Assembly (NCBI GenBank): GCA_963839305.1
Contig: CAWIUL010000011.1
Span: 2,249,561 to 2,313,560 of the forward strand
Direction: 5' to 3'
DNA: 64,000 nt
Source: an uncultured delta proteobacterium
Lineage (GTDB): Bacteria; Myxococcota_A; Polyangia; Polyangiales; Polyangiaceae
Shown here: piece by piece, positions 7,007 through 60,027 of the stretch
Position numbering within the stretch: position 1 is the first letter of the stretch
Layout: every line of letters begins with the position of its first letter
The notes under the pieces: model-generated
Told to the model about the DNA's origin: nothing
Seen by the model: only the letters and a program-made list of their open reading frames with translations
The model's database searches: none
Translations under genes and position numbers: made by a program

Positions 7007-8762
<1,756 letters not shown>

Positions 8763-42323: not shown

Positions 42324-42917
42324 GTGCGACCCCGAGCGCGTGACGCGACGCTGGCAGGCGCGGTCCTCGCGGCCGTGGCTGCGTCGTCGTGCTGCATCGG
42401 TCCGCTCGTCGTGGCCGCGCTCGGGATCGGCGGAGCCGGCGCATTCGCGGCGCTCGCCGCTTACCGTCCCTACGTCCTTGGTGCGACGGCGTCGCTCCTC
42501 GCGCTCGGATTTCATCTGACCTATCGCGCGCCGCGTGCGGCGGACGCGTGCGGCTGCCAACGACCACGGGCGAACCGCGCGGGCCGCATCGGGCTGTGGC
42601 TCGCGACGGCGCTCGTGGCGGGGCTCGCCGCTTCACCGACGCTCTTGGCGGCGATCTCCGCTCGACGGCCCGTCCCCGCAGCGGCCGGCGCCGAGCTCTC
42701 GCACGCGGTCCTCTTGGTGCGAGGGGTCGATTGTCAGGCGTGCGCGATGCCCATTCGCAGAGCGCTGACGAACGTCGGAGGTTTGCACGATGTCACGCTC
42801 GACGTGAGCGCACGAACCGTCGGCGTGACGTACGAGCCCGCTCGCGGCAGGCTCGACGCGTACGTCGCCGCGATCGACGCGCTCGGTTACGAAGCGAGCC
42901 TCGAGAGCTCGTTCTAG
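42324..42917 (+). CDS. merT: MerT-like heavy-metal transporter fused to C-terminal HMA (MerP-like) domain
   Basis: GTG start. TM1 ..AAVAASSCCIGPLVVAALG.. matches the MerT CC motif. C-terminal ..VRGVDCQACAMPIRRAL..VTLDVSARTVGVTYEP.. is an HMA fold with a CxxC pair. Confidence 0.75.
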   Translation: MRPRARDATLAGAVLAAVAASSCCIGPLVVAALGIGGAGAFAALAAYRPYVLGATASLLALGFHLTYRAPRAADACGCQRPRANRAGRIGLWLATALVAGLAASPTLLAAISARRPVPAAAGAELSHAVLLVRGVDCQACAMPIRRALTNVGGLHDVTLDVSARTVGVTYEPARGRLDAYVAAIDALGYEASLESSF

Positions 42918-44488
42918 ATCCCGAAGACGTCACCGTTGGCGTCGACGCCGATCGATTCTGCCCCTGGTTTTTCGGGCAATCCTGGCATCGTGAGCACGTG
43001 GCCCGCGAGCGCGAGCACGTAGCCCGCGCCCGCGTAGAGGCGCACGTCGTCGATCGGAAACGTGAAGCCCTCGGGGCGGTTCACGAGCTTGGGATCGTGG
43101 CTGAGCGACGCAGGCGTCTTCGCGATGCACACGGGGAGCGCGCCGAAGCCGCGTGCCTCGAGCGCGGCGAGCTTGCGCTGCGCGACCTCGCCGAGGTCGA
43201 CGCTCGCGGCCCCGTAGACGCGCGTCGCGACGGTCTCGAGCTTGCGACGCAGGTCCCACGCGAGCTCGTAGATCGGGATCGCCGGCTTCGCGATCGCGAG
43301 CGCGTCGAGCACCGCGCGCGCGAGCGCCTCGCCTCCCGCGCCGCCCTTTTCGTGGACCTCCGAGCGCGCGGTGGGAACGCCGATCGCGCGCGCGCAGTCG
43401 TCGAGCGCGGCGAGCTCGCTCGCGGAGTCGTCGCCGAAGACGTTGATCGCGATGACCGGCGTCACGCCGAAGAGCCGCGCGTTCTCGACGTGCTTCTCGA
43501 CGTTGCGGAACCCCACGCGCACGTCGCCCGCGCCGTGGAAACGGACGGCGCGCGTCGTCACGACGATCACGGCGACCTCGGGCGCGAAGCCCGCGTCGCG
43601 GCATTTCAAATCGACGAGCTTCTCGAGCCCGCAGTCCGTGCCGAAGCCCGCTTCGGTCACGACGACGTCCGCGTGCGCGAGCGCGACGCGATCGGCCACC
43701 ACCGACGAGTTTCCCGTCGCGACGTTCGCGAACGGTCCCGTGTGCACGAGCACCGCGTTGCCCTCGAGGGTCTGGACGACGTTCGGCGCGATCGCGTCGC
43801 GCAAGAGCGCCGCCATCGCGCCGTGCGCGTGAAGCTCGGCCGCGGTCACGAAGCTCGCGTCTTCTCTCGCGCGCGCTCCGACGACCGTGCGCGCGAGGCG
43901 CTGCTCGAGGTCTTCGAGATCGCGCGCGAGCGACAGCGTCGACATCGTCTCGCAGGCGGCCACGATGTCGAACGCGCCCTCGCGCGCGAGCTTCGTCCCC
44001 GCGTTCAGCACGATGCGGCGGAGAGCGCGGTCGTCCATGTCGATCGCGCGGCCGCACCAGACGTCGGCGATCCCGAGCGCGTTCTGGTGGAACACGTGGT
44101 TGTCGGTCATCGCCGCGAGGAGGTTCTGCGCCGCAGCGACCGCGTGAAAATCCCCCGTGAAGTGCAGGTTGATCTCGTCGCTCGGCACCATGCGCGCGAG
44201 ACCCGAGCCCGTCGCGCCGCCCTTCAAGCCGAAGATGGGTCCGAGCGAGGGCTGCCTCAGCGTCGCGAGCGCGCGCGTCCCGAGCCGCGCGAGCGCGTCC
44301 GTGAGCCCGAGCGCGGTCACGGTCTTCCCTTCCCCGTGCGGCGTCGGGTTGATCGACGTGACGCAGACGAGCCGCCCGCGCGCCGCTCCCGCCTCCGCGC
44401 CGCGGATCTTGGCCTTGAAGCGCCCGAGCGCCTCGACGCGATCGCGCGGGAAACCCGCGCTTTCAGCGACGTCTACGATCGGACGCAT
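42914..44488 (-). CDS. fhs: formate--tetrahydrofolate ligase
   Basis: ..MRPIVDVAESAGF..RFKAKI..VTSINPTPHGEGKTVTALGL.. (FTHFS P-loop PTPAGEGKTT). 524 aa. Confidence 0.9.
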   Translation of the reverse strand: MRPIVDVAESAGFPRDRVEALGRFKAKIRGAEAGAARGRLVCVTSINPTPHGEGKTVTALGLTDALARLGTRALATLRQPSLGPIFGLKGGATGSGLARMVPSDEINLHFTGDFHAVAAAQNLLAAMTDNHVFHQNALGIADVWCGRAIDMDDRALRRIVLNAGTKLAREGAFDIVAACETMSTLSLARDLEDLEQRLARTVVGARAREDASFVTAAELHAHGAMAALLRDAIAPNVVQTLEGNAVLVHTGPFANVATGNSSVVADRVALAHADVVVTEAGFGTDCGLEKLVDLKCRDAGFAPEVAVIVVTTRAVRFHGAGDVRVGFRNVEKHVENARLFGVTPVIAINVFGDDSASELAALDDCARAIGVPTARSEVHEKGGAGGEALARAVLDALAIAKPAIPIYELAWDLRRKLETVATRVYGAASVDLGEVAQRKLAALEARGFGALPVCIAKTPASLSHDPKLVNRPEGFTFPIDDVRLYAGAGYVLALAGHVLTMPGLPEKPGAESIGVDANGDVFGI

Positions 44489-44494
44489 GAGGAA

Positions 44495-44570
44495 TGGTGG
44501 GCGAACCGGGACTTGAACCCGGAGCCAACGGATTAAGAGTCCGCTGCTCTACCAATTGAGCTATTCGCCC
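44495..44570 (-). tRNA. tRNA-Lys (anticodon CTT)
   Basis: The reverse complement folds as a cloverleaf. Acceptor GGGCGAA/TTCGCCC, D-arm GCTC..GAGC, anticodon stem GCGGA/TCCGT with loop CTCTTAA, T-arm CCGGG-TTCAAGT-CCCGG. Discriminator A and an encoded CCA. 76 nt. Confidence 0.85.
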
Positions 44571-44652: not shown

Positions 44653-45366
44653 GTGAAGACGACCAGGCAAGCGGTGATTCTCGCGGGCGGGTTGGCGACG
44701 CGCATGCGCCCGCGAACGCTGACCATTCCGAAGCTCCTGCTCGAGGTGCAGACGAAGGACGGGCCGCGCCCATTCGCCGATTTGCAGCTCGAATTGCTTG
44801 CACAGTGCAAGTATCAGAGCGTCGTGATGTGCGTCGCGCACCTCGCCGATCAGGTTCGCGCGTACGTCGGAGACGGCAAACGCTGGGGTCTCGACGTCGA
44901 GTACTCGGACGAAGGAAAAGAGCTCCTCGGCACCGGCGGCGCGCTCCGCATGGCCGCCCCGCGCCTCGAGGACACGTTCCTCGTGACGTACGGCGACAGC
45001 TATTTGCCCTTCGATTACGCCGCACCGCTCGACGTGCTGCGCGCCCACGACGACTGCGACGGCGTCATGAGCGTCTTCGCGAACGCGGGGCTGTGGGACG
45101 CGTCCAACGTCCGCACCGACGGGACCTGGGTCCTCGCGTACGAGAAGGGGACGAAGGATCCGGCGTTCGACCACATCGACTACGGCGCGATCGCGCTCCG
45201 CAAGTCGACCACGCTCGAGCTCCCCGAACGGCAGCGCTGCGGCTTGGATGAGCTCCAAGCGAAGCTCGCCGCACGCGGCCGCTTGCGGGCGTGGGTCGCG
45301 CGTGAGAGGTTCTACGAGATTGGCTCTCCGGAGGGACTCGCCGCGCTCGAGCAGCGGCTTTCGTAA
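44653..45366 (+). CDS. sugar-phosphate nucleotidyltransferase (HddC/GmhD-like heptose-1-P NTase candidate)
   Basis: GTG start. ..AVILAGGLATRMRP.. NTP_transferase motif. 237 aa. Confidence 0.8.
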   Translation: MKTTRQAVILAGGLATRMRPRTLTIPKLLLEVQTKDGPRPFADLQLELLAQCKYQSVVMCVAHLADQVRAYVGDGKRWGLDVEYSDEGKELLGTGGALRMAAPRLEDTFLVTYGDSYLPFDYAAPLDVLRAHDDCDGVMSVFANAGLWDASNVRTDGTWVLAYEKGTKDPAFDHIDYGAIALRKSTTLELPERQRCGLDELQAKLAARGRLRAWVARERFYEIGSPEGLAALEQRLS

Positions 45367-45372
45367 CACCCC

Positions 45373-46368
45373 ATGATCGTCTCACGCGCTCCTGTTCGCT
45401 TTTCTTTGGGTGGTGGCGGCACCGACCTGCCGACGTATTCGCGAGAGCACGGCGGCTTCCTCGTCGCCGCGGCGATCGACAAGTACGTCAACCTCTGCGT
45501 CGCGCCACGCTTCCAGAACAACATCCGACTCGCGTACTCGAAGACCGAGCTCGTCGACTCGGTCGACCAAATCGAGCACCGCATCTTCCGCGAGGCGATG
45601 CGGTTCGTCGGCACGACGAACCCGATGGAGCTCCACAGCCTGGCGGACGTGCCGTCGAACACCGGGCTCGGATCGTCGTCGTCGTTCACGGTCGCGCTCA
45701 TCAACGGCCTCCACGCGTTCAAGCGCGAGTTCGTCGGCACCGAGCAGCTCGCGCACGAGGCCTGCCACATCGAGATCGACATCCTGAAGGAGCCGATCGG
45801 CAAGCAGGACCAGTACATCGCCGCGTACGGCGGGATCACCGCGTTCACGTTCGAGAAGGACGGCTCGGTCCACGCCGAGCGCCTGCCCGTGAAGGACGAC
45901 GTCATCGACGAGCTCGAGTCGAGCCTCCTCATCTTCTACTCGGGCGTCGAGCGCTCGGCGTCGGCGGTCCTCAGCGAGCAAGCCAAGACGGTGAAGGCGA
46001 ACAAGGACGACGCCGTCGCGCGCATGCACCGCATCAAAGAGATGGGCTACGAGACGAAGAAGCTCCTCCTCGAGGGCAACGTCGACCTCTACGGCGAGCT
46101 GCTCCACGAGCACTGGATGAACAAGCGGAAGCTCGCCGCCAACATGACCGACTCGGCCATCGACGAGCACTACGAGGCCGCGCGCAAGGCGGGAGCCATC
46201 GGCGGCAAGCTCATGGGCGCGGGCGGCGGCGGATTCTTCATGTTCTACGCGCGCGCGACCGAGCGCCGCAAAGTGTACGACACGCTCGTCAGCCGCGGTC
46301 TACGCCCCATGCGCTTCCGCTTCGATTTCGACGGCGCGCGCATCCTGGCTAATTTCCATCGTTCTTAG
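45373..46368 (+). CDS. GHMP-family sugar kinase (HddA-like D-glycero-D-manno-heptose-7-P kinase candidate)
   Basis: MIVSRAPVRFSLGGGGTDLP.. then GHMP motif ..PSNTGLGSSSS... Confidence 0.85.
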   Translation: MIVSRAPVRFSLGGGGTDLPTYSREHGGFLVAAAIDKYVNLCVAPRFQNNIRLAYSKTELVDSVDQIEHRIFREAMRFVGTTNPMELHSLADVPSNTGLGSSSSFTVALINGLHAFKREFVGTEQLAHEACHIEIDILKEPIGKQDQYIAAYGGITAFTFEKDGSVHAERLPVKDDVIDELESSLLIFYSGVERSASAVLSEQAKTVKANKDDAVARMHRIKEMGYETKKLLLEGNVDLYGELLHEHWMNKRKLAANMTDSAIDEHYEAARKAGAIGGKLMGAGGGGFFMFYARATERRKVYDTLVSRGLRPMRFRFDFDGARILANFHRS

Positions 46369-46416
46369 TGCTAAAGACATAAGTACAGAGCGACATTTCT
46401 TGGGAGGTTTCGTTTC

Positions 46417-47070
46417 ATGGCCATCTTCATCGACAGCTCCGACCCGAAAGAAATCAAGGACCTCTTCGGTTGGGGCGTGCTCTCGGGCGTCACCACGAAC
46501 CCGCTCATCATCTCGAAGGAGCGCCCCGGCGCGGACCTCGGCGAGGTCGTCCGCGAGGTGCTCGCGGTGAGCTGGGGCGACGTCTCGGTGGAGCTGACGA
46601 CGGAAACCGAGAAGGAGATGATCGAGGAGTCCGCGCAGTATCACGCGTGGGATCCGGCGCGCATCACGATCAAGGTCCCGATGAGCGAGACCGGCCTCCG
46701 CGTGCTCCACCAGCTCGCGAAGAAGGGCGTGAAGACGAACGTCACGTGCCTCATGTCGATGAACCAGGCGTACCTCGCGGCGCTCGCCGGCGCGACGTAC
46801 GTCAGCATCTTCAGCGGCCGCGTGCGCGACATGGGCTACGACGTGAAGCCGATCATCTCCGGCACGCGCAACATCCTCGATCGCGAGAACCTCCCGTCGA
46901 AGATCATCGTCGGCTCGATGCGCCACCTGATGGACGTGAACGAGGCGCTCGAGTGCGGCGCGCACTGCCCGACGATCACGCCCCCGATCCTCCGCAAGAT
47001 GGTGTGGAACCCGCGCACGATCGAGACGATCAACGAGTTCAACACCGCGTGGAAGAACCGCAAGAAGTAG
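46417..47070 (+). CDS. transaldolase / fructose-6-phosphate aldolase family protein
   Basis: MAIFIDSSDPKEIK..GVTTNPL.. is the classic Tal/Fsa N-terminus. Schiff-base Lys region ..ITIKVPM... 217 aa (Fsa/TalC-size). Confidence 0.85.
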   Translation: MAIFIDSSDPKEIKDLFGWGVLSGVTTNPLIISKERPGADLGEVVREVLAVSWGDVSVELTTETEKEMIEESAQYHAWDPARITIKVPMSETGLRVLHQLAKKGVKTNVTCLMSMNQAYLAALAGATYVSIFSGRVRDMGYDVKPIISGTRNILDRENLPSKIIVGSMRHLMDVNEALECGAHCPTITPPILRKMVWNPRTIETINEFNTAWKNRKK

Positions 47071-47283
47071 CGATTGTCCAGCGCTCGGCGTGAGCGATCT
47101 TGTCTTGAGCGCGAGTGGTGATGGAGATGCGGCAGCGTCGACGCCTCCGGCCGGACCGGCACGTGAACCCCGGTGCGCCACTCGCGCGTTGACGCGGCAG
47201 GTGGCGGCGCCGCCGCGAATTTCTCGCTGCCGCGTGTCGACGACAACGACAGCGTGGTCTGGTCGGCCGACGTGAGCTCCTGA

Positions 47284-48139
47284 CTAGTCTTTGACGGCGT
47301 AGGCGACCATGTCGCCCGTCGTGATCGGGAAGCCCGCGCGCATCACGGGCTGCGGCAGCACCTTGCTCGCGGTCCGCATGACGGGCGTGAAGAGCCAGTG
47401 CGGGAACTCGTCGAAGATGTGCGCCATGTAGCGGACGTTCATCGTCTTGAAGAGCGCGCGCGCGCGGTAGTCGTGGAAGCCGTTCTTCGCGAGCAGCGTC
47501 TCGAGATTCTTCTTCCCGAAGTAGAAGAGGTGCTCGACCTTGTAGTTCGTCCAGCGCATGCCCATCGTGCGCTGCGAGAGCGAGCCGACGTGGGGAACGG
47601 TGAGCGCGATCTTGCCGCCCGGCGCGAGGAGCTCGCGCGCCTTCGAGAGGACGCGCCCAGGGTCGCGAACGTGCTCGAGGAAGTCGCACATCGTGATCAC
47701 GTCGAAGGAGCCCTTCTCGAACGGCGCGTCCTCGAGGTGCCCGCGGAACGCGTGGTCCTTGCCGAAGCGCTCGGCGATTTTGTTCGCGCCGAACTCCGAG
47801 AGCTCGACGCCGTACGGGTCCCAGCCCATGTCCTTGGCGTCGCCCATCAGGAAGCCGGTCGCCGCGCCGCAGTCGAGGAGGCGCCCGCGCGGCGTGCCGG
47901 GGATGCCGCGCAGCACGCGGTGGAAGGTCGAGCGCTTCATCTGCTCGACGGCCTGCTTGTCCGTCTGCAGGCCCCACGCGTCGTAGTAGTGCTCGCCATA
48001 GATGCGATCGAGCGTCTCGTCCGTGGGCTGCGGGTCGATGCGCTCGAGCCCGCACTTCGCGCAGCGCACGAAGTGATGCTCGTCCTTCTCGCCGATCGGG
48101 CTGAAATCAGCCGCGCCGCACACTTCGCATGCTCTCATG
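47284..48139 (-). CDS. class I SAM-dependent methyltransferase with N-terminal Zn-ribbon
   Basis: MRACEVCGAADF..VRCAKCGL.. (CxxC..CxxC). ..LLDCGAATGFL.. motif I. ..PGGKIALTVP... Confidence 0.75.
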
Positions 48140-48229
48140 GCGGCGCGAGATAACCATGAGCGGTCTTTCCTGTCGAGCGGGCCTCGGTTGCTTGACGCGT
48201 TCGACCTCGCGAGGTTACCTCGCGGCATC

Positions 48230-50416
48230 ATGCGCTCCTCGCAGGCGAGCCCTGCAGTCGAACGGGCTTGCCGGGCCCTCGCGATGGTCGCGGGCGCGTG
48301 GTTCGTCTTCACGGCGTGGTGGGGCATGGACGCGATGCCCGCCGGCGGCCACCTCGGAAACGGCGCCGTGGGGCAAGCGCTCGCGGCCGAGAACGCCCTT
48401 CGCTGGCACTCGGTCTATCCGCTCTACGACTGGTACAAGCCGATCAACACGTATCCGGCGGGGTCGATCTGCCACCACCCGTTCGGCATTTACTGGCTGA
48501 GCGAGATCCTCGTCGCGCTCTTCGGCCACCGCGACTTCATCGTGAACCTGCCCGCCGTGCTGATGAGCACGGCGATCCCGTTCATCTTGTGGAAGCTCGG
48601 CAAGCACGCGTGGGGAGCGATCGGCGGCGCCGCAGCGGTGCTCGGGTTCTCGCTCCTGCCGATCGCCGTCGGCTACTCGATCTTCCACGGCCTCGAGAAC
48701 ACGACGATCTTCGGCGCGCTGCTCTTCTACATGGGGACGGCGCGCTTTCAGTCGCACGGCCGAAGGCGCGATCTCGCGTTCGCCGTGATCGGCGCGCTCT
48801 TCGCGACCTCGGGGGACTGGGCCGGTTACCTCGCGCTCGCGCCGACGCTCGGGTGGGCGTTCGTGCGCGCGTTCGTGCTCCCGAGCTGGGCGACCGCGCC
48901 GATCACCGCGCGCGTGCGGTACGACCGCTGGTGGGCGCTCTCGGTCGCCGCGGCGGTGTGCACGCTGATGCTCTGGGTCGTGCTCTTTCATCGCGCCGAC
49001 AAGATCAACGACTGGCTCGGCGCGGCGCTCACGCGCGGCGGCGGCAAGGACATCCCGCTGTCGGTCGTGCTCGAGTCGCGCCGCGCGTGGATCGAGTTCA
49101 GCTTCACGCCGCTCGCGATCGCGATCGGCAAGCTCGCCGCGCCGGTCGCGCTCGCGCGATTTTTGTGGAAGCGCGACGACACCGAGGGCTTCTCGCTCTC
49201 GATGCTGTTCGCCGCGACGGTTCAGTACGTGGTCTTCAAGCAAGGCGCCGACGTCCACATCTTCTGGCCGCACTACTTCTGCGCGTATTACGCGCTCGCG
49301 TTCGCGCAGCTCGTCCGCACGATTTGGGACGTGGTCGCGTGGATGACCTCGAGGATCGCGCCGAAGGCGACGCGCGTCGCGCCGGTCGTCGCGATGATCG
49401 CGACGTGCGCGCCCTCGCTGCTCCTCGCGCCCGACGCGTTCCACTCGCTCCGTGTGTGGCGCTCGACCGGCGGCCGCTACGACGACAAGGGCTCGCTCAT
49501 CCGGAGCGGCGCGGATCTCATCTTCGTGCTCCACGAGATCCTGCGCCCGCAGATGCAACCGAACGAGTCGCTCGCCTTCAACGCCGGCGCGCACGTGAGC
49601 TGGGAGCACAGCTGGGGGCTCTTCCGCGACATGGTCGAGAGCGACGGCCCGAGCCCCTCGTTCCCGTTCTGGGTCGCGCGCGCGAGCGCCCTCGGGGGCG
49701 ACCGAATGACCAAGCTCGCGGCGAGCTATCCGCTCTCGATCTACGGCGACGTCGTCGTGGTGAAGCGCGGCGCGCCGCAGGGCCCCACCCTCGCGTACTC
49801 GCTCGACGAGCACGAGCCGAACGTCTTCCAGTGGATGTTCACCAACAACGTCGAGCCCGTGCGCACCGTCCCGACGGCGCCGGATCCTTTTCGCACGTGG
49901 GAGTGGCGCTACCACCTCGGGCAAGCCGCGGAGGAGCCGACGGCGGCGCCGAAGACCCTCGACGAGATCCGCATCGCTCACAACGCCGCGCTCGCGCGCG
50001 GCGACGCGGCGACCGCCGAGCGCCTTCGCGAGCAGATCCTCGCGCAGATCACCCGCGAGCCCGAGGCCCACTTCGACGGTGGTCACGAGCTCATGGGCGT
50101 TCGGGTGACGCGCGGCGTCCAGCCGGTGCTCGAGAGCTGGTTCCAGGCCGGCGGCCCGACCACGACCGACCAGAATTTCCGCGTCCGCACGAAGATCGTC
50201 CGGCGCGGCCGGCTGAGCCTCATCCCGCCCGACGAGTACGATCGCGAGATGGCTTGGCCGCCGCCGCTGTCGACGAAGCTCTGGAAGACCGGGTTCATCT
50301 ACAAATTCGAGACGGTGATGAACCACCGGATCGGGCTCGAGCGGTACGTCGGGTTCTGGACGGGCGGTCCGCCCAAGCACGCGCCAGACGGGATCACCTT
50401 GGTGGAGGTGGAGTGA
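48230..50416 (+). CDS. polytopic membrane protein, GT-C-fold glycosyltransferase-like (ArnT/PMT-like)
   Basis: About 11 TM segments in the N-terminal ~480 aa, followed by a ~250-aa soluble C-terminal domain. Divergent from the MTase gene. Confidence 0.6.
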   Translation: MRSSQASPAVERACRALAMVAGAWFVFTAWWGMDAMPAGGHLGNGAVGQALAAENALRWHSVYPLYDWYKPINTYPAGSICHHPFGIYWLSEILVALFGHRDFIVNLPAVLMSTAIPFILWKLGKHAWGAIGGAAAVLGFSLLPIAVGYSIFHGLENTTIFGALLFYMGTARFQSHGRRRDLAFAVIGALFATSGDWAGYLALAPTLGWAFVRAFVLPSWATAPITARVRYDRWWALSVAAAVCTLMLWVVLFHRADKINDWLGAALTRGGGKDIPLSVVLESRRAWIEFSFTPLAIAIGKLAAPVALARFLWKRDDTEGFSLSMLFAATVQYVVFKQGADVHIFWPHYFCAYYALAFAQLVRTIWDVVAWMTSRIAPKATRVAPVVAMIATCAPSLLLAPDAFHSLRVWRSTGGRYDDKGSLIRSGADLIFVLHEILRPQMQPNESLAFNAGAHVSWEHSWGLFRDMVESDGPSPSFPFWVARASALGGDRMTKLAASYPLSIYGDVVVVKRGAPQGPTLAYSLDEHEPNVFQWMFTNNVEPVRTVPTAPDPFRTWEWRYHLGQAAEEPTAAPKTLDEIRIAHNAALARGDAATAERLREQILAQITREPEAHFDGGHELMGVRVTRGVQPVLESWFQAGGPTTTDQNFRVRTKIVRRGRLSLIPPDEYDREMAWPPPLSTKLWKTGFIYKFETVMNHRIGLERYVGFWTGGPPKHAPDGITLVEVE

Positions 50417-50478
50417 CCGTCGGCGACGGTCCGCCGGATTGATTTGTCGGGGCGAATGAGCTACCGCGAGCGCGACGA

Positions 50479-51333
50479 ATGAAGCTCACTGGCAAAGTCG
50501 TGGTCGTCACCGGCGGCTCGCGGGGGATCGGCTTCGCGATCGCGCGCGCCCTCGGCCGTGAAGGCGCGAAGGTCGCCATCGGCTCGCGCACGGCCAAGGA
50601 GGTCGACGAGGCGAAGGCGAAGCTCGAGGCCGACGCGATCGAGGTCCTCGCTCGTCCACTCGACGTCACCAATCTCGAGGACGTCACCGCGTTCGTCGGC
50701 GCGGTCGTCGCGCGCTTCGGCACGGTCGACGTGCTCGTGAACAACGCTGGCGTCGGCGGCGCGATCGGATTGCTCGAGGAGTGCGACCCGCGCGAGTGGA
50801 TGCGCACGATCGAGATCAACGTCTTCGGCACGATGAACGCGTGCCGCGCCGTCCTTCCGATCATGCGAAAGAACCGCCGCGGCAAGATCGTGAACCTCGC
50901 GGGCGGCGGCGTCGGCGGACCGGCCGTCGCCACGCGCCTCAGCGCCTACACGACGTCGAAGGCCGCCACGGTGCAGCTCACCGAGGCGCTCGCGAAGGAA
51001 GTCTCCGACGCCAACATCCAGGTGAACGCGATCTCGCCGGGCGCGGTCGTCACCGAGATGACCGCAGCGTTCGTCGCCGCAGGCCCCGAAAAGGCCGGAA
51101 AAGAGCTCTACGAGCGCACGCTGCAGCAGCGCCAGAGCGGCGGCGAGTCGCCCGAGATCGCCGCGCGCCTCGTCGTGTGGCTCGCGTCCGACGCGAGCAC
51201 CCTCACCGGCAAGATGCTCAGCGCGAAGTGGGACAAGGTCGAAGAGATCGATCAAGCCGCCGCGAACCGCTCGTCGCTCTTCACGCTGCGGCGCATCGAC
51301 AACGCCCTCTTCGCAGAGGTCCCCAAGAAATGA
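50479..51333 (+). CDS. SDR-family oxidoreductase
   Basis: TGGSRGIG. NNAG. Catalytic YxxxK as S..YTTSKAA. Confidence 0.9.
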   Translation: MKLTGKVVVVTGGSRGIGFAIARALGREGAKVAIGSRTAKEVDEAKAKLEADAIEVLARPLDVTNLEDVTAFVGAVVARFGTVDVLVNNAGVGGAIGLLEECDPREWMRTIEINVFGTMNACRAVLPIMRKNRRGKIVNLAGGGVGGPAVATRLSAYTTSKAATVQLTEALAKEVSDANIQVNAISPGAVVTEMTAAFVAAGPEKAGKELYERTLQQRQSGGESPEIAARLVVWLASDASTLTGKMLSAKWDKVEEIDQAAANRSSLFTLRRIDNALFAEVPKK

Positions 51334-52298
51334 ACGTCGGCATCATCGGCTGCGGGCTCATCGGCGGCAAACGCGCGGACGCACTGAAGGACACGGGCGA
51401 CAAGCTCGTCGCCACCTTCAATCTCGTCGCCGAGCGCGCGAAGGCGCTCGCGAACAAGCACGGCGCGCAGGCGTGCTCGAGCGCCGTGGAGCTCGTCGCG
51501 AAATCCGACGTGGTGGTCGTCGCGGCGACGAACGATCAGCTCGTCCCGCTGACGATGCTCGCGGTCACCGCGGGCAAGCACGCGGTCGTCGAGAAGCCCG
51601 CGGCGCGCCGCGCGAGCGAGCTCGCTCCGGTCGTCGAGACCGCGCGCGCGAAGAAGCTCGTCGTGAAGGTCGGCTTCAACCACCGCTTCCACCCCGGCGC
51701 GCAGAAGGCCCGCGCGATCCTCGACGAGGGCTCGTGCGGCGACGTCATGTTCATCCGCGGGCGCTACGGCCACGGCGGCCGCATCGGCTACGACAAAGAG
51801 TGGCGCGCCGACCCGGAAAAGTCCGGAGGCGGCGAGCTCATCGACCAGGGCGTGCACCTCATCGACCTCGCGCGCTGGTTCGTCGGCGACGAGTTCACCG
51901 ACGTCTTCGGCCGCGCGGAGACTTATTTCTGGAAGATGCCCGTCGACGACAACGCGTTCCTCACGCTCGCGACGCCGAAGCGCCAGGTCGCGCACCTCCA
52001 GGTCTCGTGCACCGAGTGGAAGAACATGTTCTCCCTCGAGATCTACGCGCGCCACGCGAAGCTCCACCTCGAGGGCCTCGGCGGCAGTTACGGCGTCGAG
52101 CGCCTCTACCACTATCAAATGCGCCCCGAGATGGGCCCGCCGGACACGGTCGTCTACGAGTACCCGCCGTTCGACAAATCCTGGGCGCTCGAGTGGGCCG
52201 ACTTCAAGAGCGCGGTGGCCAGCGGCAAGCGCGCGTGCGGCGACGTGATCGACGCGCTCGAGGCGCTCAAGATCGTCGACAAGGTCTACGGGCGCTGA
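51330..52298 (+). CDS. Gfo/Idh/MocA-family oxidoreductase
   Basis: ATGA overlap with the SDR gene. MNVGIIGCGLIGGKRA.. Rossmann N-terminus. ..EKP.. motif. Confidence 0.85.
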   Translation: MNVGIIGCGLIGGKRADALKDTGDKLVATFNLVAERAKALANKHGAQACSSAVELVAKSDVVVVAATNDQLVPLTMLAVTAGKHAVVEKPAARRASELAPVVETARAKKLVVKVGFNHRFHPGAQKARAILDEGSCGDVMFIRGRYGHGGRIGYDKEWRADPEKSGGGELIDQGVHLIDLARWFVGDEFTDVFGRAETYFWKMPVDDNAFLTLATPKRQVAHLQVSCTEWKNMFSLEIYARHAKLHLEGLGGSYGVERLYHYQMRPEMGPPDTVVYEYPPFDKSWALEWADFKSAVASGKRACGDVIDALEALKIVDKVYGR

Positions 52299-52304
52299 GG
52301 GAAC

Positions 52305-53327
52305 ATGGACACGACACGAGTTTTCACCGAAGAGGACGCGAAGAAGCGCTGGTTCGTCACGGGCGGCGCGGGCTTCATCGGGAGCCACGCCGTCGACCTC
52401 CTCGTCTCCGCGGGCTGCCGCGTCACGGTCTTCGACAACCTGAGCCTCTCGACGGACCAGTACATCGCCGAGCACGTCAAGAGCGGGAAGATCGACTTCA
52501 TCCGCCACGACCTCCTCAATCTCGAGGCCGTCACGAAGGCGATGGCGGGCCACGACATCGTCTGGCACCTCGCCGCGAACACCGACATCCCCTCCGGCTT
52601 CAAGAAGCACCGCATCGACCTCGACAACTCCGTCACCGCGACGTGGAACGTCCTCGAAGCGATGACGAAGACTGGCGTCAAGCAGCTGCTCTTCTCGTCG
52701 ACCGGCGCGGTCTACGGCGAGGCGATCGAGGGCACGTTCAAGGAGTCGTCGGGCCCGCTCACGCCGCTCTCGCTCTACGGCGCGGGGAAGATCGCGAGCG
52801 AGGCGTTCATCGCCGCGTACTGCAACCTCTTCGGCATCCAGGCGTGGGTCTATCGCTTCGGCAACGTCATCGGCGAGCGCACGAACCACGGCATCATCTA
52901 CGACTTCATCGCGAAGCTGAAGAAGAGCCCTGCGGAGCTCGAGGTCCTCGGCACGGGCAAGGGCGAGAAGAACTACTTCCTCGTCGAAGAGTGCATCCAC
53001 GGCATGCTGTACACGCACCACCGCATGCCGAACGGGCCGTTCCCGTATCTCGTGAACCTCGGCACCGACTCGACGTCGAAGATCATGGAGATCGCCGCGA
53101 TCATCGTCGAGGAGATGGGACTCGGCGACGTGAAGTACAAGTTCACGGGGACGCCGCGGGGGTGGCCGGGCGATCAACCCGTGGTGCTGCTCGACACGAC
53201 GAAGATCCACGAGCTCGGCTGGTGGGCGAAGCGCACGTCGAACGACGCCGTGCGCAGCGCGACGCGGCGCCTGCTCGGCACCGAGAAATTCATGCTCAAC
53301 ACGAGGACGCTCCATGGCGACGTTTAG
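52305..53327 (+). CDS. NAD-dependent epimerase/dehydratase
   Basis: VTGGAGFIGSH. Catalytic YGAGK. 340 aa. Confidence 0.9.
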   Translation: MDTTRVFTEEDAKKRWFVTGGAGFIGSHAVDLLVSAGCRVTVFDNLSLSTDQYIAEHVKSGKIDFIRHDLLNLEAVTKAMAGHDIVWHLAANTDIPSGFKKHRIDLDNSVTATWNVLEAMTKTGVKQLLFSSTGAVYGEAIEGTFKESSGPLTPLSLYGAGKIASEAFIAAYCNLFGIQAWVYRFGNVIGERTNHGIIYDFIAKLKKSPAELEVLGTGKGEKNYFLVEECIHGMLYTHHRMPNGPFPYLVNLGTDSTSKIMEIAAIIVEEMGLGDVKYKFTGTPRGWPGDQPVVLLDTTKIHELGWWAKRTSNDAVRSATRRLLGTEKFMLNTRTLHGDV

Positions 53328-53913
53328 CGAGACGTTTTTGCAAGAGAGCGCGGCGCTCATCCAAGGGCTCGACGCGCAGATGATCGAGAAGATGGCCGAG
53401 GGCCTCGGCGCGGTTCGCGACGGCGGCGGTCGCTTGTTCATCCTCGGCGTCGGCGGCTCCGCCGGCCACGCGAGCCACGCGGTGAACGACTTCCGGAAGA
53501 TCTGCGGCTTCGAGGCGTACGCACCGACCGACAACGTGTCGGAGCTCACCGCGCGCACGAACGACGAGGGCTGGGAGACGACGTTCATCGAGTGGCTCAA
53601 GACCTCGCGCCTCTCGAGCAAGGACGCGGTGCTCATCTTCTCCGTCGGCGGCGGCAACAAAGAGAAGAACGTGTCCGTGAACCTCGTACGCGCGCTCGAG
53701 CTCGCGAAGGAGCGCGGCGCCAAGGTGTTCGGCATCGTCGGCCGCGACGGCGGCTACACGAAGCAGGTCGCGGAGGCGTGCGTGCTCGTGCCGGTGGTCC
53801 ACAAGGACCGCGTCACGCCGCACACCGAGGGATTCGCGGCCGTCGTGTGGCACCTCCTCGTGAGCCATCCGCGGCTCCAGAAGGCCGCGACGAAGTGGGA
53901 ATCCACGAAGTGA
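53314..53913 (+). CDS. gmhA: SIS-domain sedoheptulose-7-phosphate isomerase
   Basis: ..LFILGVGGSAGHASHAVNDF.. and ..IFSVGGGN.. are GmhA-like. 199 aa. Confidence 0.8.
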   Translation: MATFSETFLQESAALIQGLDAQMIEKMAEGLGAVRDGGGRLFILGVGGSAGHASHAVNDFRKICGFEAYAPTDNVSELTARTNDEGWETTFIEWLKTSRLSSKDAVLIFSVGGGNKEKNVSVNLVRALELAKERGAKVFGIVGRDGGYTKQVAEACVLVPVVHKDRVTPHTEGFAAVVWHLLVSHPRLQKAATKWESTK

Positions 53914-53923
53914 GCTCCTCGCG

Positions 53924-54523
53924 ATGATGAAGGGCGTCGTCCTCGACCGCGACGGCACGCTCGTCGACGTCGTGCGCGACGAGGACACGGGAGTCATCAC
54001 GACGGCGTTTCATCCCTCGCAGCTGCGCATCCTTCCTGGGGTGATCGATGGCCTCAAGGCGCTCGCGGACGCGGGGTTCGTGCTGTCGATCGCGAGCAAC
54101 CAACCGGGCCCTGCGAAGGGACACTTCTCGCGCGACGCGGTCCAAAAGACCAACGACGCGCTCGTCGCGATGCTCGCGAAGGAGGGCGTCGCGATCGCGA
54201 AGGTGGTGGTCTGCATGCACCACCCCGACGGAGGTCCCGGCGGCGACCCGACGCTCGTCGGCCCGTGCGACTGTCGCAAGCCGATGCCAGGGATGTTCCG
54301 CGACATCATCGCGTCGCTCGGGCTCGACGCGGCTCGTTCGTGGGCGATCGGCGACACGACGTCGGACGTGGAGGCGGGACGCGCGGCCGGCTTGAAGACG
54401 GCGCTCTTGTTCGACACGAAGCGGTGCGAGCTGTGCCCGCTCCGAAACGGCCCAGCGTGCACGCCCGACGTCCACGCGGCGAAGTTCGAGGCGCTCGCGA
54501 AGGCGATCCTCGCGCAGGGCTAA
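53924..54523 (+). CDS. gmhB: HAD-family D,D-heptose 1,7-bisphosphate phosphatase
   Basis: VVLDRDGTL (DxDGT motif). Zn-binding CxH...C.C (CMHHPDG..CDCRKP) as in GmhB. ..GDTTSD... Confidence 0.8.
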   Translation: MMKGVVLDRDGTLVDVVRDEDTGVITTAFHPSQLRILPGVIDGLKALADAGFVLSIASNQPGPAKGHFSRDAVQKTNDALVAMLAKEGVAIAKVVVCMHHPDGGPGGDPTLVGPCDCRKPMPGMFRDIIASLGLDAARSWAIGDTTSDVEAGRAAGLKTALLFDTKRCELCPLRNGPACTPDVHAAKFEALAKAILAQG

Positions 54524-54528
54524 TTCGT

Positions 54529-55139
54529 TCACGGGCAGGACGACAGTCGGTACGTCGGGTTTCGGCCGTTCGGGCCCGGGACGTTGTCCGTGTAAGGACC
54601 GTCCGCGAGCCACAGCCCGAGCTCGCCGCCCGCGAAGTCGAATTCGTAAGGCGCGTCGCTCGCGAGGTTCGCGTTCACGCACGCGTCGAAGCTCGTGAAG
54701 CCGCCTTGGTTCGGGTAGAAGCCTACGGTGCCCGGCACCGGCGCGATCACCGTGTTGCCGCTCGTCACGAGGTAGAGCGTGTCAGGCCCGTTGGCGTACG
54801 CGTTCACGGTCCACGCCTGCGACGACGAGTACTTCATGCAGCCGTCGACGTAGGTCACGCGGTAGTGCCCGGCGGGAAGGGGCGCCCCGTTGTTCCAGCG
54901 CGTCGTCGCGCCGAGCGCATCGGCGACGAGCGTGCCGTAGTCGCAGAGGGGCAGTGGCGGGCTCACGTCGGGCGCCGAGTCGACGGCGGCGTCGTGGACG
55001 TCCGGAGCGCCTGCGTCGTGGACGTCCGGAACGCTCGAGTCGAACGAGGCTGCGTCGAGCTCGAGCACGTCGAGCTCGGTGCGCGCGCCGCACGCGCACG
55101 CGAAGCTCGCGACGAGCGTGAACACCTCGCGCCTCATCT
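54529..55139 (-). CDS. secreted hypothetical protein
   Basis: MRREVFTLVASFACACGA signal peptide, then acidic repeats (PDVHDAGAPDVHDAAVDSAPDV) and a ~130-aa domain with 6 Cys. Confidence 0.45.
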
Positions 55140-55235
55140 TGCGTATTCTACCGCCACGACATTGGGCATCGCCGACGTTTTCTTCCTGCGAAGCGCGCGT
55201 GAAAAAGTCCGCGCGCGCCCACCCGAGCGGCACGC

Positions 55236-56121
55236 GCTCGTGCGCCGCTGGTGGAGGGTCGCGCGCGAGCGCCTCCGCGTCGCGGAGCGGCTCGATCCGC
55301 AGCTCGAGAGCGCCGCGGCGTGGCCGCTCTATCGAGACGGCGTGCGCGCGCTGGCGTGCGCGGCGGTCGCTGCGGTCTCCGGCGAGGTGAACGAGGCGGA
55401 CGGCGCAGACGTCGAGTCGGCGTGGGCCGCGCTCGAGCGCGTCTGGCCAAAGCTCGACGCGCCCGCCGCGCTGGAGGCGTTCGCGGCTGGGCGTGAACTG
55501 CTCCGCGAGCGACCCACGCTCGACGCGCCGAGGCCCGATCGCGCGACCGCGACCGCCGCGTGTCAGGCGATCGATCGGCTCGCGCGGTGCGTCGAGCGCG
55601 CGATCGAGCCGCGCACGATGCGCCAGGTGCAGACCGCGAGCGTCCTTCGCGTCGCGCCGATCGTGATCGCGCCGATCGCGCTCGCGGCGTGGCTCGTCCC
55701 GCCGATGTTCGCGCCGAAGAGCCTCGCGCTCCACAAGCGCGTCGCCGTGAGCTCGAGCCGTGAGTCGGAGGCGCCGCCCGGCGGTGGCGACGTCGTCAAC
55801 GGCGTCATCGAGCACACGTACGGGATGCAGACGAACGAAGAGGACAACCCCTGGGTGCTCGTCGACCTCGAGCGGCCGACCTACGTCGCGCGCGTCGTCG
55901 TCTACAACCGCGGCGACGGTTGGTTCGACGACTGCTTGCCGCTCGTCGCCGAAGTGGGCAACGACGAGAAGGCGCTTCGCGTGATCGCGACGCGTGACAA
56001 GCCCTTCTCCCAGCACCGCCCGTGGGAGCTCCCGCTGCACGACACGATCCGCTTCATCCGCCTCTCGAAGAAGGGGCACGGCTACATCACGCTCGCCGAA
56101 ATCGCGGCGTACGCGAAGTAG
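55236..56121 (+). CDS. membrane-anchored discoidin (F5/8 type C)-domain protein, paralog 1 (start uncertain; TTG 55163 or GTG 55236)
   Basis: Helical cytoplasmic N-terminal region, a single TM LRVAPIVIAPIALAAWLVPP, then a C-terminal ..WVLVDLERPTYVARVVVYNRGDGWFDDCLPLVAEVGNDEKALRVIATRD...IRFIRLSKKGHGYITLAEIAAYAK. Confidence 0.55.
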
Positions 56122-56123
56122 AT

Positions 56124-57710
56124 CTAACGATCGCGCGCGAGGACGAGCGCGTTGAAGCGGCCGCCCCACATCGGCGTGATCGCGAAATTGTGCTCGTACG
56201 GGTTGCACTCGAAATACGCGACCGCGTGGTACCCGGGCACCTCACGGAACGGCCAGAGATCGCCCGCGTGGCCGAACACGTCCGGGTACGACGCGACGAG
56301 CACGTAGTCCGGGTGGCGTCGCGCCGCGTCGTCGGCGCTCGTGACGTCCGGTGTGAACACGAGGTGCGACCGATCGCGCGTCGGTCGTAGGTCTTGGCGA
56401 ATGCCCATGACGTCGGCGATGACCGTGTTCGTGCACGCCACGGTCGTGGTCTTCGAGACGCGCGCCGCGATCCAGTCGAGCGCGCGCGTTCGTGCGTCGA
56501 CCGAGAGCGTCTGCGCGCGCGCTGCCTGGACGATCGACACCACGACGAAGAGCCCGATGAACGCCGCGGCGAGGAGAGCACGCGCGCTCGTCGCGAGCCG
56601 AACGCGCGACGCCTCCGCGTGGAGCCACGCCATCGAGAACCCGATACCGATGCAGAGGATGGGCGCTGCGCCGAGGTAGTTGCGGAACAGGAACGCGCGG
56701 CTCGTGAACGCGAATCCGAGGAGCAAGAGCGCAGCCTGCGTCGTCCCGAGGACGACGATGACGCTTCGCTGACGCCACGCGAGCACCAAGCCCGAGACGG
56801 AGAGCGCTCCCGCGATGCCAGCCGCCCACGGCCACCGATGAAAGAGCTGAAAGAGGAGCGCGTGGGCCTCGCCGGCGAGGTGCTCTGGCCCTGGCCATCG
56901 GAGGAGGAGCTCCGGGACGCCGCCGTCGACGGTCTGGTTGACGCGCAGGCGGATGTCGCGGACCGCGAGGCTCGCGTGAAGGAGGAAGTGCGGGTTCAGC
57001 GCGTAGAACACGAACGCCGCGAGGGGTATGGCCCAAGCGAACCGAAGCGCGCGCTGGCGCCACGTGCCCGCCTTCAGAGCGAGCAGCACGATCGGGACGA
57101 GGAGCGTCAACGTCGCGGTCAGCTTGAAAGCCACCGCGAGCGCCGCGAACGTGACCGTCGCGATCGCCCACCGCGTGCGGCCGCCGCGGACGTACAGCGC
57201 GCCGAATGCGAGCGTCCACGCGCTCAACGCGACGAGGTTCGCGTCGGTCGCCGCGTATCGCCCGTGGGTGACGAGCTCCGCGCCCGCGGCGTACGCGAGC
57301 GCCGCGTAGATCGCGCGAGGACGCGCCCAGCGATCGCCGAGGGTCGCGAAGCGCGCGGCGACGTAGATCGCGAACGCCCCAGTCGACGAGATGATCGCCG
57401 TGACGTCACGACCGATGACGCGAAGGAGCACGCCGTCGGTCGTGTCGAACACGCGCTCCGGGTGCAGTGCGCGCAATGCCAGGATGACGAGCGCCGCGAT
57501 CGTCGAAGGGGGCGCGCCGTACTGATACGTCTGCGGCATCCACGCGCTCGTCTGAAGCATGTGGGCCGTGTTGTCGGTGACCCAGCCCTCGTCCCAGTGG
57601 TGGTAGTAGGGCAAGCCCAAGCGGATGCCGAGGTAGCGCAGCACGAACGCGAGCACGACGATCGCCGAGGCCGCGAGCCAGTCGACGCGATCGAACGCGT
57701 TCGCCCTCAT
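56124..57710 (-). CDS. GT-C-fold membrane glycosyltransferase-like protein (ArnT/PMT/GT39-83-like)
   Basis: MRANAFDRVDWLAASAIVVLAFVLRYLG.. About 12 TM segments and a C-terminal soluble domain. ATGA overlap with the upstream discoidin gene. Confidence 0.65.
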   Translation of the reverse strand: MRANAFDRVDWLAASAIVVLAFVLRYLGIRLGLPYYHHWDEGWVTDNTAHMLQTSAWMPQTYQYGAPPSTIAALVILALRALHPERVFDTTDGVLLRVIGRDVTAIISSTGAFAIYVAARFATLGDRWARPRAIYAALAYAAGAELVTHGRYAATDANLVALSAWTLAFGALYVRGGRTRWAIATVTFAALAVAFKLTATLTLLVPIVLLALKAGTWRQRALRFAWAIPLAAFVFYALNPHFLLHASLAVRDIRLRVNQTVDGGVPELLLRWPGPEHLAGEAHALLFQLFHRWPWAAGIAGALSVSGLVLAWRQRSVIVVLGTTQAALLLLGFAFTSRAFLFRNYLGAAPILCIGIGFSMAWLHAEASRVRLATSARALLAAAFIGLFVVVSIVQAARAQTLSVDARTRALDWIAARVSKTTTVACTNTVIADVMGIRQDLRPTRDRSHLVFTPDVTSADDAARRHPDYVLVASYPDVFGHAGDLWPFREVPGYHAVAYFECNPYEHNFAITPMWGGRFNALVLARDR

Positions 57711-60008: not shown

Positions 60009-60027
60009 CGGTCACCTACGTTGCCGC

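Follow-up and report, generated by a model that had tools for sequence, protein, structure and literature searches.

Gene content of the locus

We analysed a 64-kb stretch of DNA (contig CAWIUL010000011.1, positions 2,249,561 to 2,313,560; hereafter the window) from an uncultured delta proteobacterium of the Polyangiaceae, which carries a sugar-nucleotide gene cluster adjoining genes for GT-C glycosyltransferases. The GC content of the window is ~69%, and genes were called from third-position GC bias, since raw lists of open reading frames (ORFs) are rich in artefacts at such GC content. Families were assigned from Pfam and NCBIfam profile scores against curated or equivalog cut-offs, from the nearest PDB matches, and from AlphaFold2 (AF2) models compared with Foldseek. 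All ten genes that an earlier, sequence-only reading of this DNA had named were recovered at 44653-54523; they show a strong third-position GC bias and significant Pfam matches. The close homologues of the kinase encoded here come from Polyangiaceae and other Myxococcota metagenome-assembled genomes (MAGs), and the window encodes a resistance-nodulation-division (RND) efflux pump with an outer-membrane factor, indicating that the organism is diderm.

The cluster starts on the forward strand with genes for a 237-aa sugar-1-phosphate nucleotidyltransferase (NTase; 44653-45366; Pfam NTP_transferase, 1.3e-13), a 331-aa HddA-like anomeric sugar-phosphate kinase of the GHMP family (45373-46368; GHMP_kinases_N and GHMP_kinases_C), and a short (~220 aa) transaldolase (TAL) of a cassette-linked subfamily (46417-47070; TAL_FSA, 2.6e-34). 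The reverse strand then carries the gene for a 284-aa S-adenosylmethionine (SAM)-dependent methyltransferase (MT) with an N-terminal CxxC...CxxC zinc ribbon (47284-48138; Methyltransf_23, 1.5e-21). Its start was set at 48138 because homologues are 283-291 aa long, and the longest ORF reaches 48327. The next forward gene, GTC1 (48230-50416; the longest ORF begins at 48137), encodes a GT-C glycosyltransferase with a PMT_2/ArnT-like N-terminal membrane domain and a C-terminal domain of ~300 aa. Five further forward genes encode a classical short-chain dehydrogenase/reductase (SDR), probably a sugar ketoreductase (50479-51333; adh_short, 1.3e-53), a Gfo/Idh/MocA oxidoreductase (GFO), probably a dehydrogenase of the sugar C-3 or another secondary alcohol (51330-52298; GFO_IDH_MocA and C3 domains), a GalE-like NAD-dependent nucleotide-sugar epimerase of the extended SDR type (EPI; 52305-53327; Epimerase, 1.5e-41), a GmhA-fold ketose-phosphate isomerase with a remodelled phosphate loop (53314-53913; SIS_2), and a GmhB-like HAD-IIIA phosphatase with a CxH...CxC zinc motif (53924-54523; NCBIfam TIGR01656). 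The intergenic distances from the SDR gene through the HAD gene are -14 to +10 bp, an operon-like spacing. The cluster continues beyond 54523 to the right edge of the window with genes for discoidin proteins, a PMT_2-like protein, and the membrane proteins U1, U2, and U3.

Core enzymes of the cassette

The sequence-only reading had assigned the isomerase, kinase, phosphatase, and nucleotidyltransferase to the four steps of the GDP-D-glycero-alpha-D-manno-heptose route. The four enzyme classes are indeed present, and for the kinase, isomerase, and phosphatase the nearest families or solved structures are those of heptose enzymes, but none of the proteins reaches the equivalog cut-off of its heptose family. 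The best NCBIfam family for the kinase is HddA (NF049969), at 164.5 bits against a cut-off of 600, and its nearest solved structures are 3k85 (171 bits), a structural-genomics entry deposited as D-glycero-D-manno-heptose 1-phosphate kinase, and WcbL 4usk (151 bits). Kinase homologues in Polyangia are 76-93% identical, and a search of 1.84 billion representatives returned 13,024 kinase representatives from a library clustered at 50% identity. Against the kinase, more than 150 of the cluster representatives, all uncharacterised, score 243-480 bits, above any solved heptose kinase, which shows that it belongs to a large uncharacterised subfamily. In one 716-aa homologue (P0249), the kinase sequence is interrupted by an intein that carries a LAGLIDADG endonuclease domain. 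An ADP-heptose (beta-anomer) route of the HldE type was considered and rejected, as the kinase is of the GHMP type and neither ribokinase-like nor cytidylyltransferase-like HldE domains were found.

The phosphatase scores 119 bits against 178 for the GmhB equivalog (PRK08942) and 56 against 250 for the alpha-specific model, and it passes both the HAD-IIIA model TIGR01656 (114 against 84) and the histidinol-phosphatase domain model (82.6 against 44.6). It aligns with GmhB 3l8e (70 bits) over the DxDGT, SNQ, CRKP, and GDxxxD motifs and keeps the zinc CxH...CxC motif. The nucleotidyltransferase, a homologue of which occurs in 31 of 34 well-flanked related loci, matches MurU best among the NCBIfam families (96 bits), with mannose-1-phosphate guanylyltransferase at 75 bits, all below the cut-offs. 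HddC (NF049965) is only its fourth-best match, at 52 bits against 300 and over the N-terminal half, and among solved structures MurU 8hhd/4y7t likewise ranks first, with HddC 6jq8 at 42 bits. The protein is thus closer to MurU and mannose-1-phosphate guanylyltransferase than to HddC, and the 'GDP-' of the proposed route does not follow from it.

The isomerase scores 52 bits against a cut-off of 209 for gmhA (TIGR00441). Its AF2 model (pLDDT 85) has GmhA chains as all of its top 26 Foldseek matches (TM-score ~0.72), and the GmhA metal and catalytic positions (His, Glu, Gln, His) are occupied by His, Asp, Glu, and His. The GmhA S-T-S-G-x-S phosphate loop is replaced by SVGGGNKEKNVS. The loop reads SVGGGNKEKNVSVN in the window and SVHGGSGxDKAGxWSQN in TAL-linked cassettes of other phyla, compared with the ISTSGNSAN loop of E. 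coli GmhA; the insertion relative to GmhA is 6 residues in the window and 9 in the other phyla. The remodelled loop is found in every TAL-linked cassette examined, whereas kinase::SIS fusions without a TAL, for example in the Wzy-type cluster L088, retain an ISTSGNSxN loop.

A transaldolase dedicated to the cassette

We compared the window with related loci (L numbers) and with representatives of the kinase homologues (P numbers); counts of TAL, epimerase, GT2, and GT-C genes refer to 29 well-flanked kinase-anchored Polyangia loci and to neighbours within 10 kb. The transaldolase shares ~38% identity with the short decameric enzymes of B. subtilis and T. acidophilum. An alignment with 3r8r and 3s0c shows that it retains their active-site set of Asp, Glu, Lys, Phe, Arg, and Ser/Arg: the catalytic D6 and E (VSVE), the Schiff-base K (ITIKVP), F (SIFSGR), R, and S/R. 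Its score for the fsa_talC equivalog is 161 against a cut-off of 246. A fructose-6-phosphate aldolase (FSA) was rejected, since the diagnostic residue is the Phe of transaldolases instead of Tyr. Unlike the housekeeping short transaldolases, the enzyme is encoded within a sugar-nucleotide cassette, and the cassette-linked TALs share subfamily-specific substitutions beside active-site residues (TCLM versus TLIF/TLVF, and S(I/L)F versus SPF).

The sequence-only reading had listed the transaldolase as a possible source of sedoheptulose-7-phosphate. The enzyme is not an optional supplier: it is dedicated to the cassette and conserved with it in Polyangia, a Candidate Phyla Radiation (CPR)-like bacterium, Omnitrophota, and a Woesearchaeote, and it travels together with the loop-modified isomerase. 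A TAL gene lies near the kinase in 25 of the 29 loci, and in the reverse comparison 30 of 33 TAL-anchored metagenome loci of at least 4 kb have cluster genes alongside. P0271 is a TAL::kinase fusion; other fusions in the kinase family join the kinase to a GT2, to the SIS isomerase, or to a Gfo enzyme (P0143). Two unrelated TAL clades, 28-30% identical to each other, occur among the cassettes, and the second (L018, L067, L072-L074, L077; e.g., L072 4119-4781) adjoins the same SIS isomerase in some Polyangia clusters, which looks like non-orthologous replacement of the transaldolase.

Two pathways that would use this enzyme set have to be weighed. In the canonical GDP-D-glycero-alpha-D-manno-heptose route (GmhA, HddA, GmhB, HddC), the TAL would merely boost sedoheptulose-7-phosphate from fructose-6-phosphate and erythrose-4-phosphate, and we give this account an even chance. 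The window shares with the GDP-heptose pathways of the Aneurinibacillus S-layer glycan, the Campylobacter capsule, and the Burkholderia pseudomallei capsule (WcbL/WcbN/WcbM) the same four enzyme classes and the alpha-anomer logic of a GHMP kinase; its nearest solved structures are 3k85, WcbL, GmhA, and GmhB, and the GmhB zinc Cys/His motif is kept. The same kinase subfamily includes, at 40-45% identity, TAL-less Wzy-type polysaccharide clusters that resemble ordinary heptose clusters (L088). The GT2s associated with the cassette are closest to a Dol-P-Man synthase that uses GDP-mannose, which would suit a manno-configured GDP-sugar, and the JGI/IMG pipelines label these proteins HddA and GmhA. 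The scores far under the equivalog cut-offs, with HddC in fourth place for a nucleotidyltransferase that is MurU-like, set the window apart from those pathways, as do the dedicated TAL and the insertion in the isomerase loop. Sedoheptulose-7-phosphate is already produced by transketolase in the ordinary pentose-phosphate pathway, so that a dedicated TAL is not obviously needed for a heptose. The frequency of the TAL in these clusters, its two unrelated clades, its fusion to the kinase, and its retention in both bacterial and archaeal modules sit poorly with this route, and so does the lack of the GmhA loop in the TAL-linked isomerases; we know of no characterised heptose cluster with a transaldolase.

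The second pathway is of the LmbR/N/P/K/O type. Here the TAL would join a C3 unit from fructose-6-phosphate or sedoheptulose-7-phosphate to ribose-5-phosphate or arabinose-5-phosphate to give an octulose 8-phosphate, which the modified SIS isomerase, kinase, phosphatase, and nucleotidyltransferase would convert into an NDP-octose for envelope glycosylation. We regard this as a serious possibility, somewhat short of even. To our knowledge, the Lmb set is the only characterised pathway in which all five enzyme classes, the transaldolase included, are clustered. The lincosamide enzymes LmbR (transaldolase), LmbN (isomerase), LmbP (kinase), LmbK (phosphatase), and LmbO (guanylyltransferase) share their five classes with the window, and the comparison is one of enzyme class. 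In the Lmb pathway, the transaldolase builds octulose-8-phosphate from ribose-5-phosphate, the product is GDP-octose, and a GalE-like epimerase (LmbM) and Gfo/Idh/MocA enzymes (LmbL/LmbZ) act afterwards (PMC4351081, PMC5854111, PMC12945683). The window likewise has a GalE-like epimerase and a Gfo/Idh/MocA enzyme in addition to all five classes. The dedication of the TAL to the cassette and its fusion to the kinase in P0271, the shared substitutions near its active site, and the remodelling of the isomerase phosphate loop in TAL-linked cassettes alone also argue for an octose. However, the correlation between loop and TAL may merely reflect the common descent of the module, the likeness to Lmb/Ccb is an analogy of enzyme classes, and the prior favours heptose. 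The lincosamide pathway is an antibiotic pathway of Streptomyces, whereas the cluster in the window is of a conserved envelope type, shared by Polyangia with several candidate phyla; unlike the lincosamide cluster, it has no aminotransferase, mycothiol/ergothioneine chemistry, or NRPS-like (nonribosomal peptide synthetase-like) genes. We also know of no aldo-octose in bacterial envelope glycans, which counts against this pathway.

The Lmb octose pathway is thus also compatible with this set of genes. For the product itself, we put heptose at about an even chance, consider an octose or another sugar not derived from sedoheptulose-7-phosphate possible at less than even, and regard any other outcome as unlikely.

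Tailoring enzymes

The sequence-only reading had also suggested a 6-deoxy heptose. This was not borne out: the protein of the NAD-epimerase/dehydratase family is GalE-like, with GalE 3ehe as its best PDB match (261 bits) and the motifs SSTGAVYG and YGAGK, so a 4,6-dehydratase was rejected and a 6-deoxy product is not indicated. A homologue of the epimerase occurs in 24 of the 29 related clusters. Among solved structures, the Gfo/Idh/MocA protein is nearest to two sugar 3-dehydrogenases, DgpA and levoglucosan dehydrogenase; if it oxidises a secondary alcohol that the SDR then reduces, the pair could act as an epimerase. The classical SDR has homologues 68-73% identical in a second type of Polyangia cluster (type B, described below) and in L099. 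The methyltransferase has a 67% identical homologue at the same position in L099, and it is 24% identical (E 5e-8) to the zinc-ribbon/methyltransferase half of an MTase::GT2 fusion in L005.

GT-C and discoidin proteins

GTC1 scores above the Pfam PMT_2 cut-off (34.7 versus 26.1), and its homologues in type-A clusters (see below) are 46-67% identical. U2 (60925-62757, forward), a YfhO/ArnT-like protein, has a GT-C fold according to its AF2 model (pLDDT 91.4, pTM 0.91): ArnT 5f15 is the best Foldseek match (E 4.5e-6), followed by AftD, AglB/STT3, AftA, PglB, and Pmt4. Two clusters of U2 homologues carry a precomputed Pfam YfhO assignment. The adjacency of GT-C genes noted in the sequence-only reading is therefore upheld for GTC1 and, by its predicted fold, for U2. 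Its further statement that only GT-C-type proteins are present holds in that no GT-A, GT-B, Wzx, or Wzy domain was found by Pfam among the called genes of the window. It does not extend to three other polytopic membrane proteins. The protein encoded at 56124-57710 (reverse), with at least seven hydrophobic segments, is a possible GT-C protein whose PMT_2 score lies below the cut-off (20.7 versus 26.1 bits). U1 (58701-60008, forward; at least seven hydrophobic segments) has no match in Pfam, NCBIfam, or PDB, and its homologues adjoin cassettes in L005, L093, and L115. U3 (62744-63985, reverse), assigned as a polytopic protein by its hydrophobic segments and as the last cluster gene by synteny with L160, has no Pfam or NCBIfam match; its homologues lie beside cassettes or kinase copies in L056, L072, L090, L097, and L101. 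Profile-profile comparison of U1, U2, U3, and a 650-aa membrane protein of type-B clusters with GTC1 gave no signal, and since the alignments were shallow this is not evidence against a GT-C fold.

The downstream genes also encode three paralogous membrane-anchored discoidin (F5/8 type C) proteins, for which acceptor recognition is one possible role. The paralogues share one architecture, with a cytoplasmic helical N-terminus, one transmembrane (TM) segment, and a periplasmic F5/8 type C domain, and each adjoins a polytopic membrane protein. Paralogue a (55162-56121, forward) scores 26.6 bits for F5_F8_type_C_2, just under the cut-off of 27.8, and has one TM segment; paralogue b (57707-58618, reverse; F5_F8_type_C, 3.5e-9) overlaps the adjoining membrane-protein gene by 4 bp; and paralogue c (60005-60928, forward; F5_F8_type_C, 6.6e-10) precedes U2. 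Paralogue a is ~35% identical to paralogue c and weakly matches paralogue b (23%, E 3e-4). The pair of paralogue c and U2 is conserved across many relatives, recurring in L004, L008, L010, L011, L022, L028, L097, and L160.

The window lacks a GT2 that its relatives encode

GT2 genes lie within the cluster in 22 of the 29 loci. GT-C-like proteins are found in 12 of the 29, and one of these 12 is without a GT2 within 10 kb. The GT2s of the relatives are nearest to the dolichol-phosphate-mannose synthase (DPMS) 5mlz (116 and 49 bits) and to ArnC, and they are usually fused to a methyltransferase-like N-terminal domain. This relationship points to polyprenyl-phosphate sugar synthases, the type of enzyme that supplies GT-C transferases, and would explain how the GT-C enzymes here are supplied. 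The closest relatives of the window are L099 and L160, which share its unusual split order of NTase-GHMP-TAL-MT(-)-GTC1-...-GFO-EPI-SIS-HAD; L099 is 87% identical in the epimerase and 90% in the isomerase, and L160 is 81% identical in U2. Gene order and reading of the sequence show that in both of them GTC1 is immediately followed by a gene for an MTase-like::GT2 (DPMS/ArnC-like) protein of ~500 aa; the window has a spacer of 62 bp (50417-50478) in its place. In addition, L099 has a gene of the UDP-glucose/GDP-mannose-dehydrogenase family between TAL and MT, which the window lacks.

No GT2 remnant was detected in the window by tblastn: the GT2 proteins of L004 and L005, used as queries, gave chance-level matches only, and a GT2 hidden as a pseudogene or in another frame was rejected on these grounds. 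A GT2 just past the window edge is unlikely, since in L160 unrelated genes follow the U3 homologue, where the cluster ends. The combination of GT-C without GT-A genes, which the sequence-only reading had called unusual, is thus true of the window, but it represents a lineage-specific loss: as a rule, the module includes a DPMS/ArnC-like GT2, kept by L099 and L160 after the same GT-C gene. With no GT2 in the window, the loading step must come in trans, or this copy is impaired.

The second of these options, that the copy in the window is decaying or non-functional and no longer glycosylates after losing the GT2 and the dehydrogenase-family gene, appears improbable to us. It draws on the lack of the GT2 relative to L099 and L160, on the lack of the dehydrogenase relative to L099, and on the rarity of GT-C-bearing clusters without a GT2. 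On the other hand, the remaining genes are all intact, strongly codon-biased, and tightly coupled, and the kinase as called matches a public protein at 100% identity. Some genomes contain two copies of the cluster, as in one MAG that carries both L007 and L009, so a GT2 could act in trans. The window has also gained extra GT-C/discoidin modules and shows no overall gene loss.

A set of lipid-type genes lies beside another copy of the cassette, at L005 271-6795, and encodes a CDP-alcohol phosphatidyltransferase, a GtrA-like protein, a class-III aminotransferase, PAP2, PgpA, and MMPL. The GtrA-like protein sits in a different sub-cluster from the cassette. A modified lipid, related to the glycosylation system, might be made or exported by this gene set.

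Distribution of the module

The NTase-GHMP-SIS-HAD cassette is conserved in Polyangia, with 363 tblastn-confirmed matches in GTDB species-representative genomes; among the best 80 of the 363, all are labelled myxobacterial or 'delta proteobacterium' except three MAGs (Acidobacteriota or Pseudomonadota). Two main layouts occur in Polyangia. Type A has the order cassette-GTC1-GT2-EPI-discoidin-U2-TAL, type B has the order cassette-TAL-EPI-GFO-SDR-(MT)GT2-650-aa membrane protein-SDR, and the window, L099, and L160 mix elements of both. Outside the Polyangia, TAL, SIS, GHMP, HAD, NTase, a small DPMS-like GT2, a methyltransferase, and a PMT_2 GT-C protein are encoded together in a CPR-like contig (L086, 42% GC) and in Omnitrophota (L158). 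A woesearchaeotal locus (L159) has the same module parts, but no PMT_2 gene in the 16.6 kb covered.

The modules of L158 (5543-10000) and L159 (3356-4903) include radical-SAM and B12-binding radical-SAM enzymes, and that of L158 also has a DegT aminotransferase; these genes suggest C-methylated or aminated derivatives of the same sugar. In cultured Polyangium species (L083-L085), the closest kinase is 65% identical and has only the nucleotidyltransferase alongside; SIS, HAD, and TAL genes are all absent within 10 kb. To date, the complete cluster has been seen mainly in uncultured lineages.

Proposed pathway

We consider it probable that the locus provides the sugar, and its transfer, for a periplasmic glycosylation system that depends on a lipid carrier. 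Judged by enzyme class, the dedicated transaldolase would make or replenish a ketose phosphate, the GmhA-fold isomerase would convert it into an aldose phosphate, the HddA-like kinase would phosphorylate C-1 in an alpha-anomer route, and the GmhB-like phosphatase would take off the terminal phosphate. The nucleotidyltransferase would then yield an NDP-activated higher-carbon sugar, most likely a manno-configured heptose, with an octose as in lincosamide biosynthesis as a serious alternative product. Tailoring may involve the GalE-like epimerase, net epimerisation by the Gfo/Idh/MocA dehydrogenase and the SDR reductase, and the putative O-methyltransferase. In relatives, the Dol-P-Man-synthase/ArnC-like GT2 is predicted to load the sugar onto polyprenyl phosphate. 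After a presumed flipping step, the GT-C enzymes (GTC1, U2, and probably others), paired with the membrane-anchored discoidin proteins, would transfer it to an envelope acceptor. The most likely route overall would therefore run from NDP-sugar to polyprenyl-phosphate sugar to GT-C transfer in the periplasm.

The three-component logic of GT2, flippase, and GT-C enzyme is established for CsbB/GtcA/YfhO and related systems (PMC8035078, PMC5836110). With such systems (GtrA/B/V, CsbB/GtcA/YfhO, ArnC/ArnT, Ppm1/Pmt) the window shares GT-C enzymes, with PMT_2 in GTC1 and a predicted ArnT/YfhO-like fold in U2, and its relatives encode the DPMS/ArnC-like GT2 in the cluster. It differs in several respects. 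The donor would be a C7 or C8 sugar from a dedicated pathway, the GT2 of the relatives is usually part of a methyltransferase-like fusion, and the GT-C genes are paired with discoidin proteins, with no GtrA-like gene seen in the window. Unlike GDP-heptose clusters, in which the pathway is accompanied by GT-A or GT-B transferases with Wzx/Wzy or ABC export, the partners here are a polyprenyl-phosphate GT2 and GT-C enzymes. The combination thus joins an NDP-heptose or NDP-octose pathway to a polyprenyl-phosphate/GT-C glycosylation system, each of a known kind.

Several observations weigh against a periplasmic glycosylation system of this kind. Neither a GT2 nor a GtrA-like flippase (GtrA_DPMS_TM) was found in the window, by Pfam search of the called genes and, for the GT2, by tblastn. 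Bare cassettes, of five genes in some genomes, with no transferase within 10 kb occur in L001, L019, L024, L025, and L040, so that the sugar is often, but not always, linked to GT-C enzymes. Neither U1 and U3 nor the protein at 56124-57710 are established as GT-C proteins. All of the core enzymes score below equivalog cut-offs, which makes each substrate a prediction from sequence, and the nucleotidyltransferase resembles MurU in sequence more than HddC.

Other genes of the window

Between the phosphatase gene and the first discoidin gene, the reverse strand encodes a 202-aa secreted-looking protein with a hydrophobic, Cys-rich N-terminal leader (54529-55137), recognised from its translation. 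It has no credible match in Pfam or NCBIfam, and L160 has an ORF of similar size (195 aa) in the corresponding position behind its HAD gene. The first cluster gene is preceded by a tRNA-Lys(CTT) gene (44495-44570, reverse) and, before that, by a formate-tetrahydrofolate ligase gene (42914-44488, reverse); in the syntenic relatives L004 and L011, neither of the two was seen ahead of the cassette. A single frameshift near ...GQIFLES|DLFYSG... divides the gene for the ATP synthase alpha subunit (~7007-8560, reverse), so that its halves lie in different frames. An indel error of long-read assembly is the probable cause, and small frameshifts are therefore possible elsewhere in the window. A 1434-aa fusion of a Ser/Thr protein kinase, STAND NTPase, TPR, GAF, and a sigma-54 activator with HTH_8 is encoded at 12086-16390 (reverse).

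Implications

Literature searches returned nothing relevant on a TAL + GHMP + SIS cassette, nor on heptose in Polyangia or Sorangium; the module is widespread, and a description of it is absent from the literature searched. The automatic names 'HddA' and 'GmhA' are carried by these proteins without equivalog-level backing. The dedicated TAL and the altered isomerase loop offer a concrete, testable handle on the product. Delivery by a lipid carrier and GT-C enzymes was not found described for heptoses or octoses in the literature searched, and if the product is a heptose, polyprenyl-phosphate-heptose with GT-C transfer would be a new mode of delivery. If it is an octose, chemistry so far known only from lincosamide antibiotics would be a widespread envelope pathway. 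It is conceivable, though we hold it at less than an even chance, that the cassette is a widespread primary-metabolism counterpart of LmbR/N/P/K/O that makes a nucleotide-linked and then lipid-linked aldo-octose or another sugar not derived from sedoheptulose-7-phosphate; its use in periplasmic or surface glycosylation in Polyangia, CPR bacteria, Omnitrophota, and DPANN archaea is tentative to the same degree. If the proposed system is correct, a dedicated C7 or C8 sugar would decorate the envelopes of a large group of soil myxobacteria and also those of several candidate phyla and of DPANN archaea.

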